IMG/VR virus record: IMGVR_UViG_3300042870_001240
DNA: 64,000 bases
Strand: one strand, 5' to 3'
Source: a virus
Taxonomy: Duplodnaviria > Caudoviricetes
Part shown: positions 3,259 to 13,598 of the stretch, piece by piece
Layout of the letters: every line of letters starts with the position of its first letter
Numbering within the stretch: position 1 is the stretch's first letter
Program-made: the position numbers and the translations under genes
The notes under the pieces: generated by a model
What the model was told of the DNA's origin: nothing
Databases searched by the model: none
Seen by the model: the letters and a program-made list of their open reading frames with translations, nothing else

Positions 3259-3540
3259 TTATTTTTCGTCAGAGAACTCAATATAAACACTAATTGTATT
3301 TTCAATACCAATTGATTTAATCGTATCCCTAATTAAAGATTTAATATCTTCCCAATACTCACGACCGTTCTTAAGAAATGTATTACTATCAATTATCAAA
3401 AAAACATTATACACAATATTACGTTTTTTGTCTGTATAAAAACTCCGAGGATTCATTTCACTGGTAACCTCAACATCCTCGAACTCAGGATATTTCTCAT
3501 CCAAGACATATTTAACAATTTTTTTAATGTAATCTTCCAT
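3259..3540 (-). CDS. Hypothetical protein (93 aa)
   Basis: ORF with upstream TATTTAT; resembles the 13675 protein (KYPE..V). Confidence 0.7.
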   Translation of the reverse strand: MEDYIKKIVKYVLDEKYPEFEDVEVTSEMNPRSFYTDKKRNIVYNVFLIIDSNTFLKNGREYWEDIKSLIRDTIKSIGIENTISVYIEFSDEK

Positions 3541-3566
3541 AGTAATAAATATTATGTATTAGTATT

Positions 3567-4106
3567 TTAGATGGTAACATCATCTTTATGAGCAAGAACC
3601 TCTTCCACCCCCTCAATATCCTCTAAATAAGCACAACTAGTTGTATTTACCTTACAATTAAGAACCTCTTCAACCTTCAGTTGGCTATACGCCCATCCTA
3701 CGACAGTTGTGGTTACCTTACAGTTGAGGACCTCTTCCACCTGGCAATCTCCATTAAAATAGCCACACCGCGTTGTATTTACCTTACAGTTGAGGACCTC
3801 TTCCACCACTAGAGCGCGTGCTCGATTTATTACCAGCGTTGTATTTACCTTACAGTTGAGGACCTCTTCCACCCATTCGGACATAATCTTATCAAAATCA
3901 GGAGATTCCAAAGAAAAGAGAACAAAAAAACTCTTAAAGAAATCATATCTCCACCATAACTTACCCTCATTTTCATATTCAAAATACCAATACTTATTAT
4001 CTCTATCGATAAAGTATACACTGTCCTTATAAGAAATTATCTCGACCTTGGATAACTCCTTATAAAGTTTTTTGAATATAATATCTTTTAATCTATCTGA
4101 AACCAT
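3567..4106 (-). CDS. Array-bearing small-protein family member (MVSDRLKD type); C-terminus is a translated repeat-spacer array
   Basis: ATG at 4106 behind TATATTTG; paralog of 9453, 9993 and 20900 genes; repeats VEEVLNCKVNTT every 22 aa. Confidence 0.85.
   Translation of the reverse strand: MVSDRLKDIIFKKLYKELSKVEIISYKDSVYFIDRDNKYWYFEYENEGKLWWRYDFFKSFFVLFSLESPDFDKIMSEWVEEVLNCKVNTTLVINRARALVVEEVLNCKVNTTRCGYFNGDCQVEEVLNCKVTTTVVGWAYSQLKVEEVLNCKVNTTSCAYLEDIEGVEEVLAHKDDVTI
3574..3873 (-). CRISPR. CRISPR-like array A1: four full 36-bp repeats plus one degenerate repeat, four 30-bp spacers
   Basis: Repeats at 3640-3675, 3706-3741, 3772-3807, 3838-3873 and degenerate 3574-3609; sense consensus GGTGGAAGAGGTCCTCAACTGTAAGGTAAATACAAC; unique 30-bp spacers. 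Confidence 0.75.
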
Positions 4107-4154
4107 ATTACAAATATAATAATAATAAATGAAATAAAAAATAAAGAACACATC

Positions 4155-4463
4155 TTAACATTCATCGTTATTAAAATCCCAATATTCCATTATCCTTATT
4201 CTGAAGTTTTTCTTAACATATTCAATTAGATATTCTTCCATCTTTGAATATCCATCATCTTCCTCATTTTCAAAATAATGATATAGATAAGTCTTAGCCG
4301 TTGTTAAACATACATAATCATAATACTCTTGAAAATTATCGAAATTACAGATGAACTCATCCACCCCCTCATCAACAATGTCCCATATTAAATCAAAATC
4401 TTCCTCAACCCTCCTGAGAACATATATCAACATATTCTGTTGTTCAGTTATAATGTATTTCAT
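4155..4463 (-). CDS. Hypothetical protein with MKYIITE leader
   Basis: Leader motif and upstream TATTTAT. Confidence 0.75.
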   Translation of the reverse strand: MKYIITEQQNMLIYVLRRVEEDFDLIWDIVDEGVDEFICNFDNFQEYYDYVCLTTAKTYLYHYFENEEDDGYSKMEEYLIEYVKKNFRIRIMEYWDFNNDEC

Positions 4464-4549
4464 ATGTTATGTATTAGTTTATACATAAATATACACATAA
4501 ATAAAAAACCCCACCTATAACAGATGGGGGGTTATATATAAGATATTTT

Positions 4550-5170
4550 TTATAAAAACTCCATCAAAATCTTCGCATCCTCAGACACAAGACGTTTTGT
4601 GTTGTTCTGAAGCAAATCAAATGATTCAAATGAAAACGGACTATCACCAACCCTTGTCATAAATTCAGATTCAACATGAGGCTTAAATTTACCCATCTTC
4701 TCAATCTTACCATATCCAGGATACTCAGAATTATTTGTCCCAATAAGATAATTGTTATCACCACCCTTCTCAATAATCATAACACTATCCTGACAAAATA
4801 ACTCACCAAGCTTGGTCATATTCGAAATAAAATTAGAATCGTCTTTAATATTAACAACAAAGAAACTTTCCTCATTAACCTCAATGGCGTTTTGCTCAGC
4901 AAAATTTTCAATATACGTTCCCTTAACTTTTGTAACACCATAACCAAGATACAATAAAGCAGATTTTAAATGACGATTCCTATTCTTGTTTATCCGAATA
5001 TTAACATATCCCTTGTCATCATCACCACCCAAACAATTTGTTAGACTTTTTCTATATGATGTTATAATCGAACATTCATGCTTTATCAAATGATTATACA
5101 CACGATTAATAGATGATTCATTTAATAATAAAGAAAATCGACTCATTAGGTCTCTCATTTGTTGACTCAT
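4550..5170 (-). CDS. Hypothetical phage protein (weakly DUF3293-like)
   Basis: Likely ATG at 5170; IITSYR...N..LK..L...GYG..KV.G.Y.E...E.SF pattern. Confidence 0.6.
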   Translation of the reverse strand: MSQQMRDLMSRFSLLLNESSINRVYNHLIKHECSIITSYRKSLTNCLGGDDDKGYVNIRINKNRNRHLKSALLYLGYGVTKVKGTYIENFAEQNAIEVNEESFFVVNIKDDSNFISNMTKLGELFCQDSVMIIEKGGDNNYLIGTNNSEYPGYGKIEKMGKFKPHVESEFMTRVGDSPFSFESFDLLQNNTKRLVSEDAKILMEFL

Positions 5171-5302
5171 AGAATAAAAATATATTAATAAATACAAAGT
5201 TAATCAATATTTCAGATTTTTCCCAAAAATTTTTTTTTATATATAGGGAACAATTTAGAACAGGGGGTCATGTTCTTAAAATGATAGGTGGTGCACTTAA
5301 AT

Positions 5303-5398
5303 AAAAGGGGGCGGGGGGATTGACCACGACCGAAGGGAGTTCGGACGGTCTGGACTTATATTAAATAAAAACCCCCACCTGTATTAGAAAGTGGGGGT
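5303..5398. repeat. ~96-bp intergenic element, copy 2
   Basis: Near-identical to 2481-2577. Confidence 0.9.
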
Positions 5399-5466
5399 TA
5401 TTTAAAAAAGTGGGGGTCGTGTTTATAGGAAATAAAAAACCCCTCTGTTGGGAGGGGTAATATTAT

Positions 5467-5892
5467 TTACAGTTTATAATACTTACTAGCCGATTCGTTA
5501 TCAGGGTCAATTGGAATAGGTAATTCTTTACCTATTGTTTTATCGGGATAAGAAATTTTTACTTTTGATACGAAATTTTTATAAGCCTCCGCAAAGTCAC
5601 CACCACCGACACTAACAAGTACTCTACCTGAACCATCTCTTAAATCTATATATCTATCTTTTCCTGGCCCCAACATGTAAACACAAGATTTAAAACCAGG
5701 GGTTTCAACACCAGTACCATATGTTCCTGTCATATTATTACACAATGGTTTATTATATGTCGGTTTTAAAGTTGTATTATTAGGAGTGGCTCCCGTTGTA
5801 GTTTGGGTTGTAACTTGTTCATTTAACAATCGGTTCTCCAATCTTTGATTGGATTCCTGAATGTGTCTTATCTTACTGTAACTTTTGTTCAT
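5467..5892 (-). CDS. Hypothetical protein, MNKSYSKIRHIQESNQRLE leader (paralog of 2587-3018)
   Basis: Shared 78-nt 5' block; terminator hairpin near 5434-5459. Confidence 0.8.
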   Translation of the reverse strand: MNKSYSKIRHIQESNQRLENRLLNEQVTTQTTTGATPNNTTLKPTYNKPLCNNMTGTYGTGVETPGFKSCVYMLGPGKDRYIDLRDGSGRVLVSVGGGDFAEAYKNFVSKVKISYPDKTIGKELPIPIDPDNESASKYYKL

Positions 5893-6084
5893 GGTATTTT
5901 AGTTTATATATAAATATCACATATAACAAAAAACCCCACCTAAAAATATTTCGATTAAAAGTTGACAGTATAAAAAATAATTCGTAATATTTTGTTGTTG
6001 TTGGTTAACATAAAACCATCTCGTCAAACCCAACGGTTAGACCAATGTGGTCGAGGGTAATTATAAACAATTAAAACTTAAAAA

Positions 6085-7188
6085 ATGAAAAAGTTTAGAG
6101 TACGAATGACTAATGTTTCGACAAGATTAGTTGATGGTGAAACACAAAAATGGCTGACATGTGAGGTGTCACTATCTTCCCTAATAGAAGCAAAAAGAAA
6201 ACTAGGGAAAGAATTATTTTCCGTAAATGTTAGAGGATGTTTATCTAACAGTAAACCAACAAGTCAAGAAAGGAAAAAACCTGTATTCAGAGGTATAATG
6301 AATACAATGGACAAGATAAGAAAAAACCCTGAAAAAGCTTATCTGCAAACTATGGGAAATAATGGTTGTACGATAATGTGTGGTTCTATTGAAAGAATAT
6401 CTGGTGATATCTATGAAATCACATTAACCCATGATTACCATGGAATTGGTAACGGTCAACAAACGATTTATATAACCGAGTGGATTGATACAAATTATCC
6501 AATAAGTAGTGATGTAACCATACTATGTAAAATGGCCATTGGACTTTCAGAGGATGACTGTAACGACATATGTAAGGCAAATAACACAAGTAACAAAATC
6601 GATAAGAAAGATATCAAATCCATAGAGTGGAAAAGAATAAGTATGGAACTTAAAACATTGGGTATAACTTTCAATTATAAAAAAGAAAAAGAAGGTCAAT
6701 ACCATATCGACATCTGTGCTGAAAATTACTATAATATGATTGGGGCATATTTCACAAACAAACCTTGGGTAAACGGCCAAGAAGTGGTCGATAAAATTAA
6801 ACCTAACATCATATCAGGAAAAGAGATGATTGAAATGGATAGGGTAAAGAAAATAATTGATGATTGGTTTGAAACCAATGATAATGAGGTTAAAAAACAT
6901 AGTAATAAAATGGATACTACAAGAATGGGTTATTTAAAGAACATTATGATTTCATTATACACGGATGTTAAGATACAAGCAAGAGTAAAACCATTTATAA
7001 AAAAATACGGAGATGTTAAATTTTTTGAACTAATCTTTAAAGTTGTTATAAACACCATAGAAGAAAACGAAACAACTAAAGTATCGTCAAATTATTTTAA
7101 TAAAAAAACATACGAATTATTAAGTAAATCTATTGAAGTAGAAATTTTAGAATCAGAAATTTTAAAATCAGAAACGGTCTTAGTTTAA
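6085..7188 (+). CDS. AIPR-like (ParB/DndB-related fold) protein
   Basis: NNGCTIMC, GNGQQT and ICKANNTSNKI motifs match the AIPR pattern NNGIT...NGxQT...ATNSQN as recalled. Confidence 0.6.
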   Translation: MKKFRVRMTNVSTRLVDGETQKWLTCEVSLSSLIEAKRKLGKELFSVNVRGCLSNSKPTSQERKKPVFRGIMNTMDKIRKNPEKAYLQTMGNNGCTIMCGSIERISGDIYEITLTHDYHGIGNGQQTIYITEWIDTNYPISSDVTILCKMAIGLSEDDCNDICKANNTSNKIDKKDIKSIEWKRISMELKTLGITFNYKKEKEGQYHIDICAENYYNMIGAYFTNKPWVNGQEVVDKIKPNIISGKEMIEMDRVKKIIDDWFETNDNEVKKHSNKMDTTRMGYLKNIMISLYTDVKIQARVKPFIKKYGDVKFFELIFKVVINTIEENETTKVSSNYFNKKTYELLSKSIEVEILESEILKSETVLV

Positions 7189-7388
7189 TTGTAATAAATT
7201 TCCCCCTAACTAATATAGGGGAATTTTTCCAGAAATTTTATTTTACATATAGAGAACATTTTAAAACAAGGGGTCGTGTTTCTATATACATGGGGGAATT
7301 TTTCCAAAAATTTCTATAAACATTTTTTCATACAAATATTTCATTTAAGGGATTATCCCCCCTTTTGACACCCCAAAAACCACTATAT

Positions 7389-7460
7389 GGAGGGGGGATA
7401 CGGGGGAGGGAGGGGGTACCTACCCCATATAGGGGGGTATAGAGGGGACCTCCCCCCATA
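7389..7460 (+). other. G/C-tract cluster (potential G-quadruplex and palindromes)
   Basis: GGGGGG-ATAC-GGGGG-A-GGG-A-GGGGG within 25 nt in an otherwise AT-rich sequence. Confidence 0.6.
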
Positions 7461-7625
7461 AACGAGACGGGACACTATAGGGTCCTCCCCTGTCTGTAAT
7501 CTAATGTATGTGGGTGATGTAATTTTGATGACATATACAAGTAATGTTATTAACATGACATAATGACATTGTTAATAAGATTTGTTAATGGGGGAATAAT
7601 ATATTTGTGTATGTTGGGGATTGTA

Positions 7626-7790
7626 TGTATCTTTGTATTGTCAGTGGTTAAGTCCGAGACGGGTTCGACAAGGGGGTTGTCGCAGAGGGTGTACTCCAAC
7701 CTGCTTATATGTTTACTTAAAACCAAACCATAAGGCAGGCTGGAGTATACTCGGTCCCCATCTTCTGAATGGTCACAACACAAAGATACA
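7626..7790. ncRNA. Candidate structured RNA or inverted-repeat element bounded by convergent TATCTTTG motifs
   Basis: 16-bp terminal inverted repeats (1 mismatch), long internal stem at about 7684-7752, CGACAA-N5-TTGTCG hairpin. Confidence 0.45.
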
Positions 7791-7847
7791 AAAAAGATTT
7801 GATAGATACAAATTGTTTATTTAGAATATTATCCCTATCTTCGTATA

Positions 7848-8285
7848 ATGTTTATACAACTTATATCACATATAGAGAATCGGATTAAGTATAACAACTA
7901 CTCATCCGTGATTAATTTAACCAACAAGGAACGTAGGGACCTTGCCAAGTTCTGTCTTGAATATTGTATTGAAGTTATCGGTCAACCTAAGAAGAAAGGA
8001 ATCCCCAAGTTCAATATCGTTAAGACCAAGAAACCTTATTATGGGGAATATGTTAGCGAACATGAAAAGATATGCGTATTTTATAATCAATGTAAAACCA
8101 TTGGCACCTTCATCAGCACATTCATTCATGAATATACCCACCATACCCAAAACCTTAATAAGTATGATAAGGTATTATCCAAAGTTGGGTATGATAATCA
8201 CCCCAAAGAGATTGAAGCAAACAACATGGCAAAGTTATATAAACAACCATGCCTTGAAGCATTCCGTAAATCAATCCAATATTAA
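7848..8285 (+). CDS. Putative zinc metallopeptidase-like protein
   Basis: FIHEYTHH (HExxH) followed by HPKEIEA. Confidence 0.7.
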   Translation: MFIQLISHIENRIKYNNYSSVINLTNKERRDLAKFCLEYCIEVIGQPKKKGIPKFNIVKTKKPYYGEYVSEHEKICVFYNQCKTIGTFISTFIHEYTHHTQNLNKYDKVLSKVGYDNHPKEIEANNMAKLYKQPCLEAFRKSIQY

Positions 8286-8593
8286 ATTATCCCCCTAACA
8301 TGTTCCCGTATCACCTGTAACGAATGTTCCCTAATATACATCTGTAAATCATTATGGTCATCACTAGATAATGGATACTCCTTATGGATATACTCTATCA
8401 CATCCCCCATGTCAGTCTCCGTTAATAACAATACAGATTGGGGTTGAAGTCTACTCATCCCACTTTTTCCAACATACTTACACGTCCCCTCAAATAAACC
8501 ATGACCATATGTCACAATATAACACCCATCACTCTCCGTGATGACCGTTGAAAACTTTTTTAGTACACTTTCGTACATCTCTTTTCTACCCAT
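8282..8593 (-). CDS. Hypothetical protein (103 aa)
   Basis: ORF converging on the 7848 gene with a 4-nt overlap. Confidence 0.55.
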   Translation of the reverse strand: MGRKEMYESVLKKFSTVITESDGCYIVTYGHGLFEGTCKYVGKSGMSRLQPQSVLLLTETDMGDVIEYIHKEYPLSSDDHNDLQMYIREHSLQVIREHVRGII

Positions 8594-9181
8594 AATTGTT
8601 GATAACTTTTTTTATAAATCCCTCCTGACACTATGACAGAGGGGAATTGTTGATAACTTTTTATTAAATAAATATGTTAAAATATTTGGAATTGTCATTT
8701 TGTCAGTCACGCTTGACAATGGGGATAATCCCCCTCACCACCTTTTTTATATATTTTTTCCCACCTTTTCCCACCGATAATGGTCATAATAATATTGTAA
8801 TGTCACTTTTTTCCCTCTGTAGGGGTCTACAAGACCAATAAATTCACTATAGGTAAATCCCAGCTAATTATGTTCTTAAGAGTACACTAAGCGGTGAAAC
8901 ACGTAGTGTGTTAGAAACTAACACCCGATTACCATGAGATGTGTTAGAAACTAACACTTGATTTTCATGAGATGTGTTAGGATAATATCTTCAACGACCA
9001 CTTTAGTGGGACATTATACTCCCCACCATAATGACATACCATAACAAATTATAGGTAAGTTCTTTTAATAGTTAAAGAGAAACATCATTTATGATGAACA
9101 TGGTAACTACCATATAACTAACTCTATGGGAATATAAGGTTATAACCTTATAATCACCCATTATAAGGTCCTGACCTTATA
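8594..9181. promoter_or_regulatory. Non-coding control region with repeated operator/iteron-like sites (candidate origin)
   Basis: AATTGTTGATAACTTTT x2 (8594, 8645); GTGTTAG-AAA-CTAACAC x2 plus a half-site at 33-bp period (8908, 8941, 8974); TATAAGGT-N4-ACCTTATA x2 (9133, 9162). Confidence 0.55.
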
Positions 9182-9452
9182 ATTTGATTATCTCATCTAT
9201 ACAATATTTTTCCACCATAACAATTTACCAATATGTCACCATAACAATGGGGAAATTATATGTAATGACGTATACCTTACTGTTGCACCCTCATATTTAA
9301 TATGTATCTACATATAATGGGGACCTGATATAAATGGGGGAATATGATTATGAAGGAATACCGTAGTGAATGAAATGAACGGGAGGGATGAGTGAGTAAT
9401 TATATTCTCTCATTTATTGTATAACTAAAATATTATTATTATCTTTGTGATT

Positions 9453-9989
9453 ATGGTTAGTGGTAGATTAAAGGATTTGATATTTAAGAAACTGTATAAA
9501 GATTTATCTCATGTAGAAATTATTGAGTATAAGGGTGAGATATGGTTTATTGATAGAAAGGAAAAGTTTTGGTATTTTATATATACTAAGTCTAATGGTC
9601 AGATGTGGTGGAGATATTCTTTCTTTACTCCTTTCTTTCTTCTTTTCTCTTTACCCTCTGATGAATTTACTCACATTCTTTCTTCTTGGGTGGAAGAGGT
9701 CTTAAATTGTAAGGTGACCACAACACTCAAGGTGGCTAATGTTAGGGAAGTTATGGTGGAAGAGGTCTTAAATTGTAAGGTGACTGAAACAGAAACCGTT
9801 ATTAATGGCTACCCCCTATCGGTGGAAGAGGTCCTAAATTGTAGGGTGACTACAACAATGGTGTCTATTGCTTCTTTACCAAAATCGGTGGAAGATGTCC
9901 TAAATTGTAGGGTGACTACAACAATGATAGACAGAGGTATTCCACGTCATGAGGTGGAAGAGGTTTTAAATAATAATATAAATAAATAA
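9453..9989 (+). CDS. Array-bearing small-protein family member (MVSGRLKD type), translated array
   Basis: TATCTTTG upstream; VEEVLNC[KR]VTTT repeats every 22 aa. Confidence 0.85.
   Translation: MVSGRLKDLIFKKLYKDLSHVEIIEYKGEIWFIDRKEKFWYFIYTKSNGQMWWRYSFFTPFFLLFSLPSDEFTHILSSWVEEVLNCKVTTTLKVANVREVMVEEVLNCKVTETETVINGYPLSVEEVLNCRVTTTMVSIASLPKSVEDVLNCRVTTTMIDRGIPRHEVEEVLNNNINK
9689..9970 (+). CRISPR. CRISPR-like array A2: four full 36-bp repeats plus one partial, four 30-bp spacers
   Basis: Repeats at 9689, 9755, 9821, 9887 and partial at 9953; consensus GGTGGAAGAGGTCCTAAATTGTAGGGTGACTACAAC. Confidence 0.75.
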
Positions 9990-9992
9990 GAT

Positions 9993-10688
9993 ATGGTTAG
10001 TGATAGATTAAAGGATTTGATATTTAAGAAACTGTATAAAGATTTATCTCGTGTAGAGATTATTCATTATAAAACTTATATATGGTTTATCGATAGAGAG
10101 GATAAGTGTTGGTATTTCAGGTATGATAAATCTGACGGCACACTCTTATGGAGATATTATTTCTTCATGGATTTTTTTACCCTCTTTACGATGAGTTCCA
10201 TCGAATTTGTTCCCATCATATCTTCTTGGGTGGAACAGGTTATAAATAATAAGGTAACTATAACTCGCAACAAGATGACTTCATTTCCAGACGATATTGA
10301 AGATGCCTTAAATTGTAAAATGGTGGAAGAGGTAATAAATCATAAGGTTTCATTCGACTTAGGATATTCCATTTCTACCCTTTGTGAGGTGGAAGATGTC
10401 CTAAATCATAAGGTAACTAAACCAGATGGTGTCATTGCACTATATAATCCGATTGAAGAGCATCATAAGGTGGGATTAACTTTAGGACCTTCCCTTCCCC
10501 AATATGAAATGGTGGATGAGGTCCTAAATCATAAGGTAACTAAAACAGATGGAGCGATTGCATGGAGCGGTCCGATAGAAGAGGCTCTAAATAATAAGGT
10601 AAATACGACCGAAGATGAAATAGATAACAACATACGTGACCACCTCCTCAACCTTCAGCTGGCTATACGCCCATCCTACGACAGGTGA
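9993..10688 (+). CDS. Array-bearing family member with a degenerate translated array
   Basis: Tandem paralog of the 9453 gene; V[ED]xVLNHKV repeats. Confidence 0.8.
   Translation: MVSDRLKDLIFKKLYKDLSRVEIIHYKTYIWFIDREDKCWYFRYDKSDGTLLWRYYFFMDFFTLFTMSSIEFVPIISSWVEQVINNKVTITRNKMTSFPDDIEDALNCKMVEEVINHKVSFDLGYSISTLCEVEDVLNHKVTKPDGVIALYNPIEEHHKVGLTLGPSLPQYEMVDEVLNHKVTKTDGAIAWSGPIEEALNNKVNTTEDEIDNNIRDHLLNLQLAIRPSYDR
10229..10609 (+). repeat. Degenerate array A3 (eroded 36-bp repeats, internal deletions and a spacer duplication)
   Basis: First repeat 10229-10264, last 10574-10609; two similar DG.IA spacers. Confidence 0.6.
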
Positions 10689-10693
10689 AGATT

Positions 10694-11437
10694 TTAAACC
10701 ATATTAACTTTATTTTGCCATAACCCAAAAAAATCAGAATTTTTTATTACAATAGACCAACGCTCTATTTCTGATTTTCGATTTGACATATCTATTTCTT
10801 TTCTTGATGATGATGGTAGTTTAATTATGGTAGATAATTCGGAACTTGATAATTTAACATTTGGTGTTAAAAATATTTGTCTCCACATATAAAGGTCACT
10901 CCAAATATTTTTTGGTGCAGGTCTCCATCCAAACTTTAATTTTCTGTATAAATCCATTGTATGGGATGCTCCTGTTAAACTAATTTCATTTTGTTTAGGT
11001 TTTAAGTGATAATCAACCCATTTTTTATCTTTTAAATTAACCCTTGAAACCGTTAAGATATTATTTGGATATACTAAAACAGGTAATGGATGTGTAAAAT
11101 CACTATCAACTAACATATCTCTCATTACCTCAACATGTTTAGATAGTAAAAGGTCATCATCCCCAAGATAAGTAACTATGTCTGATTTTGATTCTGAAAC
11201 TATTCTATGTCTTGCAACTTCATTTCGACTTATTCTTTTTGGCTCATCCTCAAATCTAACTCTATTATCAGTTTTAATTATATCACTAATAACATCTCTT
11301 GTGTCATCAGTAACACCATCACCAATGATTACAATATCCAAATTATCAACCGTTTGGTTTTGAGCACTCTCAACTGAATATTTAAGTGTTGTGGGGTGAT
11401 TATGTGTCGGTATAACCACCATTACAGAATTTGACAT
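10694..11437 (-). CDS. Glycosyltransferase family 2 (GT-A fold)
   Basis: VVIPTHN, IIGDGVTD, YLGDDD motifs. Confidence 0.85.
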   Translation of the reverse strand: MSNSVMVVIPTHNHPTTLKYSVESAQNQTVDNLDIVIIGDGVTDDTRDVISDIIKTDNRVRFEDEPKRISRNEVARHRIVSESKSDIVTYLGDDDLLLSKHVEVMRDMLVDSDFTHPLPVLVYPNNILTVSRVNLKDKKWVDYHLKPKQNEISLTGASHTMDLYRKLKFGWRPAPKNIWSDLYMWRQIFLTPNVKLSSSELSTIIKLPSSSRKEIDMSNRKSEIERWSIVIKNSDFFGLWQNKVNMV

Positions 11438-12001
11438 TTATGTAAATTGACTTGGAAATAATTTAGATAAGTCAATCGGTATTTCCGTTGTATTCCAAGG
11501 TAATAATAACTTATCAGGTGCTTTATGGTTATAAACCGTTGTCGGGTGATTTATTAAAAACGCCTCCGATTCTCCAATATTAATAATACAATGCCACACA
11601 CCTGTAGGTATTTTTAATGATTGATTGCTCTGTCCACCCAAATAAACTTTTTGAATCTTTTCAAAAGTTTTTGATTCAGGTCTAACATCATATAATACCA
11701 CCAACGCTTCACCACTAATTAAAGTATAACGGTCATCCTTATATTCGTGGAGTCCCCAACCTTTAACTTGATTCGCCCGAATACTAAACATATAACAATA
11801 TACAATTGGTTTTTCCCAAAAAATATCATGACCATTTGTTCCAGAACAAATTTCAAATAACCTACCACGATTGTCAACATGAATTGTTGGTTTTAATATT
11901 ATAACATCTTGAATATTTGAAATGATTGGTGTTGAATCATTGCTGGTCGTTTGTTCCTCTTTAATTGCCCTTTTTAAAGATGGATGTATATTGTTTTCCA
12001 T
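11438..12001 (-). CDS. rmlC: dTDP-4-dehydrorhamnose 3,5-epimerase-like cupin
   Basis: HVDNRGRLFE, VKGWGLH, DVRPESKTF, IPTGVWH motifs. Confidence 0.75.
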   Translation of the reverse strand: MENNIHPSLKRAIKEEQTTSNDSTPIISNIQDVIILKPTIHVDNRGRLFEICSGTNGHDIFWEKPIVYCYMFSIRANQVKGWGLHEYKDDRYTLISGEALVVLYDVRPESKTFEKIQKVYLGGQSNQSLKIPTGVWHCIINIGESEAFLINHPTTVYNHKAPDKLLLPWNTTEIPIDLSKLFPSQFT

Positions 12002-12005
12002 ATTT

Positions 12006-13598
12006 TTAGTTAAGATAATTTAAATCTTCATCCTCTTCTAACCCATTGTAGGCGTAAGTTTGGAAGTTAGCGTTTGTATCAACCCAAGCCATTGACCTGA
12101 ATGTAACACCATCATTAATCCTAAGTTTCTCTATCTCTAATTGTTTTAACTTATGATGTAATTCTTTTTTTATAAGTTGGATTTCTTTATCTTTGGAGTA
12201 TGCTAAATTTTCTGATTCATCGGTATCATTAATTAAATCATATAATTCATACTGAGTCTCGTAACTATTTAATGCGTCAAAATAATAAGTATACTTCCAT
12301 CCTTTAGTACGAATGGTTCTTAATCTATTACAAGTTTTAACTGATGACGATAAATTGTTTGACCCTGATTTAGTATCATCAAATGTGAATAGGATTTCAT
12401 TTTGTGCTGGTTCGTTATTCTCGATAATTGGTAGTAAGTTTACACCTCTACAATCAGATGGAACAGGAAGATTAACAAAATTAGATAACGTTGGTAATAT
12501 ATCAATTAACGTAGCAAGTTCGTGGGATGATTTATGTTTCAATGTTGTTGGAAATACAACAGGGTTTGATATGACCATTGGTATTCTAATTGCTTCCTCA
12601 TAAGCAACGAACGCTTTTTGTCTCATTCCACCATGTGACATTCCCATTTCTCCATGGTCTGCCAATCTAATAACGATGGCATCATTTGCCAAGTTAATAC
12701 CATCTTCTTTATTATATAGAACATCAATTACTTTACCTATCTCACCATCAATCTTTTTAAGTAGGAACGCATAAAAGTTTAAGTAATCTAACTTCATATC
12801 ATCATTCTTTAATACCCCTAATAGACCATCTGCGGCAATATTTGTTTGGAATTGGGCAATAGGTTTTGCGTTTTCTATTAAATTTTCATTCACAGTTGTT
12901 GGTAGATTTGGAATGTCTCTTCCTGTATAGTCAGGCTCATTATATCCATACTGTATTGAGTTTGGATATCCTAACACATCATGCGGATTAACTAAACTTA
13001 ACACTATACAATATGGTTGCATGTCACCATTTTTTCTTCTAACTTTAACTTGTTCAAGATATTCCATGGTCTGTTCGATATACATGGCATCATGATTGGC
13101 AAATCCTCCACCAAAATTTTCGGGTTTCGCGTCTTCGCCAGCGTCAGGACCAACCCATCCTTTAAATCCAAATAGTGCTATGTCTTTTGCTAATGGGTCA
13201 CCACCATCGGTGCCCTTACTAAGATGCCATTTTCCTCTGTATTGAACATCATAACCAATACCATCCAATATTCTTCCTATATTTGGTGTTTGGTTATTTA
13301 ATTGTGGTTCTACAGGTGAAAAAACACCTCCTGATGTTAATGTTTGTGTTACTTGATGTTGAGCAGGATAAGTTCCTGTGAACAATGTTGAGCGGCTAGG
13401 AGAACACATACAACTGTTACAAAAAGCTCTTTCAAAACTAAATCCATTTTCTTTTAAAAAGGTTAGTGTTGGTAGATTTTCTTTTTCCCAATTGTCAGGA
13501 AAATGTTGTGTGGCTCTTTCTTGGTCGGTGATGATAAATATAATATCTGGTTGAGTAGGTAACTCAGATAAATTTTGTTTAAAGTTATTTTGTTTCAT
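12006..13598 (-). CDS. Cys-type sulfatase (formylglycine-dependent), no signal peptide
   Basis: PDIIFIITDQ, CSPSRSTLFTG (CxPxR), GKWHL, ADHGEM motifs. Confidence 0.9.
   Translation of the reverse strand: MKQNNFKQNLSELPTQPDIIFIITDQERATQHFPDNWEKENLPTLTFLKENGFSFERAFCNSCMCSPSRSTLFTGTYPAQHQVTQTLTSGGVFSPVEPQLNNQTPNIGRILDGIGYDVQYRGKWHLSKGTDGGDPLAKDIALFGFKGWVGPDAGEDAKPENFGGGFANHDAMYIEQTMEYLEQVKVRRKNGDMQPYCIVLSLVNPHDVLGYPNSIQYGYNEPDYTGRDIPNLPTTVNENLIENAKPIAQFQTNIAADGLLGVLKNDDMKLDYLNFYAFLLKKIDGEIGKVIDVLYNKEDGINLANDAIVIRLADHGEMGMSHGGMRQKAFVAYEEAIRIPMVISNPVVFPTTLKHKSSHELATLIDILPTLSNFVNLPVPSDCRGVNLLPIIENNEPAQNEILFTFDDTKSGSNNLSSSVKTCNRLRTIRTKGWKYTYYFDALNSYETQYELYDLINDTDESENLAYSKDKEIQLIKKELHHKLKQLEIEKLRINDGVTFRSMAWVDTNANFQTYAYNGLEEDEDLNYLN

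Follow-up and report, generated by a model that had tools for sequence, protein, structure and literature searches.

What does an inverted spacer do at the end of a gene that itself ends in a repeat-spacer array, and how did it get there? The window analysed here, which is the whole 64,000-nt stretch of viral DNA, carries three paralogous genes, A1, A2 and A3, whose 3' parts have the shape of CRISPR arrays. The last codons of A3 contain an antisense copy of one A1 spacer, here called X. The copy could be a target for a guide RNA built into the virus genome, a partner in antisense pairing between paralogs, or the trace of a recombination event.

The three paralogs share one layout. An N-terminal domain of about 85 residues is followed by 22-residue units, in which 12 conserved residues correspond to the 36-nt repeat and 10 variable residues to the 30-nt spacer. 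The genes and array elements are as follows.

3567-4106, minus strand: paralog A1 gene, with a folded N-terminal domain of about 85 aa and an array-encoded tail
3574-3873, minus strand: array A1, with five 36-nt repeats (the last degenerate) and four 30-nt spacers
3664-3675, minus strand: part of the repeat downstream of X in gene sense, being its first 12 nt, GGTTGAAGAGGT, with an unusual T at position 4; included in the copy
3676-3705, minus strand: spacer X, the third of the four A1 spacers, encoding VVGWAYSQLK
9453-9989, plus strand: paralog A2 gene, with a regular array of five repeats, directly upstream of A3
9993-10688, plus strand: paralog A3 gene, with an eroded array (10229-10609) and its last 15 codons, HLLNLQLAIRPSYDR, from the inverted fragment
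10694-11437, minus strand: family-2 glycosyltransferase (GT2) gene, convergent with A3 and used as a neutral neighbour for the strain tree

The start of A1 is placed at the ATG at 4106, where its homologues begin; the ORF lister begins at a GTG at 4151. Array A1 reads in frame as VEEVLNCKVxTT followed by 10 variable residues. Since only 3 nt separate A2 from A3, the two genes are probably co-transcribed. More than 600 homologues were found in metagenomes with A3 as the query and more than 1,100 with A1, and 11 further loci lie on IMG/VR viral contigs. Searches of Pfam, PADLOC and PHROGs returned nothing for A1, A2 and A3, and a blastn search of 9400-10760 against a phage database gave no match. 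In the AlphaFold2 model of A1, residues 1-85 reach a pLDDT of about 86, and the tail stays below 50. A fold search with this model gave uninformative Z scores, below 6 throughout and mostly on the low-confidence tail. In the model, the first repeat (WVEEVLN at its start) begins within the last helix of the confident N-terminal domain, so the first repeat would belong to the fold and the array would begin within the domain.

The arrays behave as CRISPR arrays, with a degenerate last repeat and polar turnover. Their repeat-spacer units are regular (36-nt repeats, 30-nt spacers and a degenerate terminal repeat), and 111 of the 120 unique spacers are exactly 30 nt long. Among A1 orthologues, X and SCAYLEDIEG are common at the distal side and the gene-proximal spacers differ, which is the pattern of polar turnover. 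X together with this trailer-side neighbour is common to P0124, P0125 and P0126, and X is an older unit. The A1 arrays of L006 and L009 also share the distal spacers SAAQEYVGKK and VKVFDIGLEM (window 3574-3873 compared with L001 2649-3122, L006, L007 and L009). The A1 array of L001 shares none of these spacers, despite near-identical flanking genes. A trailer-most spacer in the same sense is also common to the tandem paralogs of L017 (1244-1273 and 1784-1811), where it encodes THMYNNGEI and THMYTNGEI; this shared spacer was probably inherited from the gene duplication.

Unlike non-coding CRISPR arrays, the arrays sit inside ORFs, with no cas gene found among the window ORFs scanned, and they also look translated. 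Among the unique 30-nt spacers (n = 111), 93% lack a stop codon when read in the frame of the gene; the corresponding figures for the five remaining frames are 41-62%. This count, over 28 loci (the window and L001-L027), carries some ascertainment bias because the loci were found via proteins. Differences between A1 and A2 repeats are mostly synonymous. In P0124, a 99%-identical strain, X carries an in-frame 3-nt insertion (VVGWAYSRQLK, a 33-nt spacer), and this frame-keeping indel fits translation of the array. The GC content of the spacers is 0.37-0.50, compared with 0.31 for the window. Searching 185,579 species genomes with 26-nt cores of two A1 spacers, X and the newest one, gave no exact match, and the 30-nt pattern of X had none in IMG/VR. 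Scanning JGI metagenomes for X yielded two near-identical A1 arrays, L004 and L005, in an incomplete scan that missed short JGI contigs known to carry the A3 tail.

By direct sequence comparison, 10642-10687 matches 3664-3709, both on the plus strand, at 43 of 46 nt (93%). BLAST of the 64-kb window against itself gives the A1/A3 match as 43 nt at 95.3% identity (E 9.8e-13), and this is the sole self-match in the window that contains a spacer. The spacer itself agrees at 29 of 30 nt (3676-3705 against 10654-10683), the adjoining repeat at 11 of 12 (3664-3675 against 10642-10653) and the other side at 3 of 4. Both comparisons bear out the match and its breakdown as proposed in a sequence-only reading of this DNA, and the ORF strands (3567-4151, minus; 9993-10688, plus) agree with the opposite orientations that it gave to the two genes. 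Because of these orientations, the mRNA of the 9993 gene is complementary to gene-sense spacer X RNA and to the first 12 nt of the next repeat. Its predicted pairing with the gene-sense A1 transcript takes in 29 of the 30 nt of X and 11 of the first 12 nt of the following repeat. One part of the proposed breakdown has to be corrected. The 4 nt assigned to a copied second repeat flank (GGTG, 10684-10687) are native, as they are present in the insert-free tails of L002, L003 and L016. The true copy is 42 nt long (10642-10683), or 43 nt (to 10684) if one ambiguous base is counted.

The inverted fragment is real and is found in several lake samples. A copy unique to one assembly had been named as a finding that would refute the sequence-only reading; the identical 42 nt are found in five other assemblies, namely L001 (ENA) and L011-L014 (four JGI samples), which come from different samples. 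The insert is therefore not an assembly artefact, and misassembly is ruled out by six independent contigs with the same 42 nt. The stretch is present in 24 listed lake-water runs, with no RNA run among them.

Comparison of these contigs with related loci revealed two alleles of the A3 tail. The insert-free allele (L002, L003 and L016) consists of the EDEIDNNIRD unit, a degenerate repeat in sense orientation (LEKSFNKKVIRT), NQ and a stop codon, followed by GGTGAAGATTTTAAACC. The insert allele (the window, L001 and L011-L014) has the same flanks, ...CGTGACC on the left and GGTGAAGATTTTAAACC on the right, and between them, in place of about 52-56 nt, stand 42 nt made up of ACCTCCTCAACC and the antisense spacer. 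Because more distant family members also finish with degenerate repeats in sense orientation, the sense tail represents the ancestral state. All A3 alleles, insert-bearing and insert-free alike, retain the relic terminal repeat, which in L015 encodes the C-terminal residues GEDFKPY. The elements of the insert allele are listed below, with a slash at each joint.

10642-10644, plus strand: left-junction microhomology ACC, in the donor (GAACC/TCC) and in the L016-type recipient (CCACC/ATA)
10645-10682, plus strand: part of the insert from the donor only, 9 nt of antisense repeat and 29 of the 30 nt of antisense spacer X
10683-10684, plus strand: right-junction microhomology AG (donor ACAG/TTG, recipient TAAG/GTG)
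10684-10707, plus strand: native relic of the terminal repeat, GGTGAAGATTTTAAACC..., which supplies the TGA stop at 10686-10688

An exact donor allele was also observed. The A1 array of L006 (995-1036) matches the insert at 42 of 42 nt. The window's own A1 matches it at 40 of 42, with CAA for CAG and GAA for GAG. The mismatches behind the 43 of 46 thus reflect either a later change in the window's A1 or an L006-type donor. Both differences fall on third codon positions and are synonymous in the A1 frame; if they arose later in the window's A1, two such frame-silent changes would fit array translation. The A1 copy of X exists in three variants, counting two substitutions and the 3-nt insertion in P0124; the 42 nt are identical in the six insert-bearing contigs. 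Both the insert and A1 repeat 4 carry the unusual T at repeat position 4 (GGTTGA), which indicates that the repeat part was copied with the spacer and is not convergent. The GC content of the 42-nt insert is 0.55, that of the adjoining native unit 0.38 and that of the window 0.31. With an L016-type recipient (GACCACC/ATAAATGG), the joints share 3 nt with the donor on the left (ACC) and 2 nt on the right (AG). The 20-nt flanks of donor and recipient are about 45-50% alike, as counted by eye from the sequences. The right joint coincides with the exact spacer/repeat border of the donor and with the 5' border of the relic repeat in the recipient. The EDEIDNNIRD unit to the left of the insert (10610-10641) begins with GAAGATG and ends with GTGACCAC, like both ends of the A2 repeat with the spacing 4 nt off, and may itself be a decayed repeat.

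We consider it probable that the A3 3' end arose as a one-off patch from an A1-type array, mediated by microhomology, and that it now segregates as an allele. The ancestral tail would have comprised EDEIDNNIRD, a degenerate sense repeat, NQ and a stop, and the relic terminal repeat. One lineage would then have had about 52-56 nt of this tail swapped for a 42-nt piece of an A1-type array, that is, spacer X and the first 9-12 nt of the following repeat, with the absolute orientation unchanged. Since A1 and A3 are oppositely oriented, a piece that keeps its absolute orientation reads antisense within A3. The mechanism we infer is a microhomology-mediated template switch or end-joining patch. This is favoured because the joints share only ACC and AG, and because homologous exchange would yield a sense copy. 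For the latter reason, homologous exchange or inversion between the inverted arrays was rejected as the direct cause. The sequence-only reading had offered a scar of inversion or recombination as its fallback; the recombination part is supported by the ancestral allele, the 42/42 donor and the junctions of 2-3 nt, and the direct inversion between arrays is not. A shufflon-type site-specific inversion was rejected as well, as the neighbouring ORFs scanned showed no recombinase family and the case is single. The insert happens to leave the A3 frame open and gives a new 15-residue tail whose stop is the TGA of the relic repeat. The resulting allele, which we infer to be neutral, segregates and recombines alongside the ancestral allele in the lake virus population.

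Such a scar is by itself an ordinary event of illegitimate recombination. Like known microhomology patches, it is a short foreign patch between conserved flanks, with joints of 2-3 nt and a donor in the same genome; it lacks a target-site duplication and is polymorphic in the population. Here, however, donor and recipient are arrays within a single repeat-spacer gene family, and at one of the joints a spacer/repeat border falls in both partners, which would not be expected of a random patch. These differences count against the patch. Microhomology of 2-3 nt leaves the choice of a same-family array as donor unexplained, and a random donor would rarely be an array, since arrays make up only a few per cent of the window. 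The position of the right joint hints at array-specific chemistry or selection. The invariance of the insert in six contigs could mean constraint, although the strains are very close.

The distribution of the insert is informative about its relation to X. In L001, the antisense tail is present and X is found in none of the A1, A2 and A3 arrays on the 13.6-kb contig, where A1 has three other spacers. Insert-free tails were sampled together with X-bearing A1 arrays, L002 with L006 and L016 with L004, an association at sample level. In the GT2 gene tree, the insert-bearing L001 (98.3% identical to the window) falls outside the group formed by the window and the insert-free L002 (99.9%) and L003 (99.3%). 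As this grouping is at odds with the distribution of the insert, the tail alleles have been shuffled by recombination. Among 173 spacers (120 unique) from 28 loci and 324 kb, a limited sample for such a count, X alone has an antisense or out-of-array copy. Folding showed nothing unusual at the A3 3' end (z 0.69), and Rfam gave no credible match within 3500-10800.

Could the copy instead have been selected as a target? A functional self-target or decoy would require that the anti-X site in the A2-A3 mRNA is bound by a host type VI effector carrying the phage's X guide, so that the guide is titrated without activating the nuclease (a sponge) or cleavage is triggered at a set time. The extent of the pairing (29 of 30 nt to the window's X; 42 of 42, with 12 nt of repeat among them, to the L006 allele) and the identity of the insert across six contigs are in keeping with this proposal. 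So is the block of Cas13a by an 8-nt anti-tag (PMC12528686); the sequence-only reading invoked anti-tag suppression of Cas13a. In that system, the tag comes from the repeat portion on the 5' side of the spacer, and the anti-tag follows the protospacer on its 3' side; for LwaCas13a, the anti-tag GUUUUAGU is complementary to the final 8 nt of the repeat preceding the spacer (PMC12528686). The repeat-derived 12 nt in A3 lie 5' of the protospacer. Its 3' flank, GGTGAAGA, agrees with the required anti-tag, GTTGTGGT, at 4 of 8 positions with one contiguous base. The Cas13a argument fails because the repeat-derived pairing is on the 5' side and not on the 3' anti-tag side. Cas13b guides carry the repeat 3' of the spacer (bioRxiv 10.1101/2023.03.10.532141), a geometry that would make the 12 nt repeat-proximal. 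The repeats match the PspCas13b direct repeat, taken from the same preprint, at 16-21 of 36 positions ungapped, a score equalled by no more than 62 of 20,000 shuffles; the similarity is equal in both orientations and so points to no particular type or strand of guide. The copy is thus a possible non-activating target for a Cas13b-like effector, although none of the observations calls for one. The base just 5' of the protospacer in A3 is a C, which BzCas13b disfavours at that place. Against a working decoy, PADLOC and Pfam gave no Cas match on the ORFs scanned, and the largest ORF of the whole window has 590 aa; L001 keeps the target although none of the arrays on its contig holds the guide; samples with X-bearing A1 arrays also contain insert-free tails (L002 with L006, L016 with L004); and the case is single among 173 spacers. 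The lack of a Cas match on the ORFs scanned, the guide missing from the L001 contig and the lack of recurrence likewise tell against the regulatory self-target or sponge of the sequence-only reading. Overall, it is quite unlikely that the A2-A3 mRNA is a selected decoy, whether it would titrate or silence a host Cas13b-like effector with the X guide or pair directly with A1 RNA. A decoy of this kind would be the first naturally occurring RNA sponge directed at a phage-borne CRISPR guide.

Direct pairing needs no Cas protein. The A1 and A2-A3 mRNAs could form a duplex, for example as a substrate of RNase III, by which the paralogs regulate each other. The genes lie on opposite strands, each with its own start region, and the potential duplex covers 40 of 42 nt in the window and 42 of 42 against the L006 allele. 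We regard such regulation as very unlikely, however, because L001 carries one partner without the other, folding and Rfam gave no conserved structure and nothing similar recurs in the family (173 spacers, 28 loci). As for the origin of the copy, a scar made in two steps is the least improbable of the alternatives, though still unlikely. A sense X unit would enter A3 by array exchange and then flip between CACC (10641-10644) and GGTG (10684-10687), a 4-nt inverted repeat that bounds the insert. Re-inversion of the insert puts X before a repeat start and after ...GTGACCACC, which is like a repeat end (compare A2 ...GGTGACCACAAC), and the L017 arrays show that neighbouring paralogs can share same-sense spacers. 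This route needs two events where one suffices, as well as an intermediate with an out-of-register joint, and no intermediate allele was seen in the collections searched, which missed short contigs; it is possible, and less economical than a single patch. The reverse direction, in which A1 gained X as a spacer from the A3 tail of its own or a sister phage for targeting itself or a competitor, is extremely improbable. Phage-borne arrays that target other phages are known, and the spacers are richer in GC than the genome. The match, however, continues through 9-12 nt of the repeat, with the variant T at position 4 in common, so that X was not taken by A1 from the A3 tail as an ordinary spacer. 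This direction also conflicts with the ancestral status of the insert-free A3 tail and leaves the antisense repeat piece of A3 unexplained. The single patch from an A1-type array remains the preferred origin.

Several known systems resemble parts of this arrangement. Self-targeting spacers also combine a spacer and a matching sequence in one genome, but here part of the repeat is matched as well, and the 'protospacer' went from array to gene rather than from gene to array. Type VI-A tag:anti-tag discrimination (Meeske and Marraffini 2018 and later studies, recounted in PMC12528686) likewise involves a transcript with a protospacer and an array-derived flank able to pair with the guide repeat. 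There the anti-tag is 3' of the protospacer and pairs with the last 8 nt of the repeat on the 5' side of the spacer, whereas here 4 of 8 positions agree and the 12 nt are on the opposite side. No Cas13 was found in the window either, and the target here came from DNA rearrangement and not from antisense transcription of an array. RNA anti-CRISPRs (PMC10651486) and viral crRNA-like RNAs (bioRxiv 10.1101/2024.10.29.618823) provide another parallel, as a virus without cas genes carries CRISPR-type repeats that may engage a host Cas protein. Those RNAs are non-coding solitary repeats or mini-arrays that mimic repeats. In contrast, the arrays described here are translated 3' parts of genes, and the feature in A3 is a target-like antisense copy.

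The scar is useful as a marker within an unusual system, namely virus genes with CRISPR-shaped arrays as their translated 3' parts. It indicates that these arrays exchange pieces by non-homologous events, besides the gain and loss of units. It also gives an order of events, as X was already in an A1-type array, in its L006-like form, when it was copied. As a by-product, the A2-A3 transcripts would be a near-perfect target for any guide RNA made from X. A strain that carries a would-be guide and its target is a natural experiment on array function. If the arrays armed an RNA-activated nuclease, such a strain should pay a cost. Given this expected cost, the persistence of this strain in several lakes and years is a testable hint on what the arrays do.

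Other features of the locus were observed alongside the arrays. Between the inverted arrays lies an ORF of 367 aa (6085-7188) that matches the AIPR (abortive-infection phage-resistance) family (E 5.5e-9). At the syntenic locus of L001, no gene is called at the place of this ORF, and the DNA there is partly masked. A cluster of sulfatase, RmlC-like epimerase and family-2 glycosyltransferase genes (10694-13598) converges on A3; its sulfatase gene is absent from L001 and kept in L015 and L016. A few bases upstream of the A1 and A2 starts are TATATTTG (4107-4118, minus strand) and TATCTTTG (9437-9444), which we take to resemble the Bacteroidota -7 promoter box (TAnnTTTG). These start regions suggest that the host belongs to the Bacteroidota and that the mRNAs are nearly leaderless.
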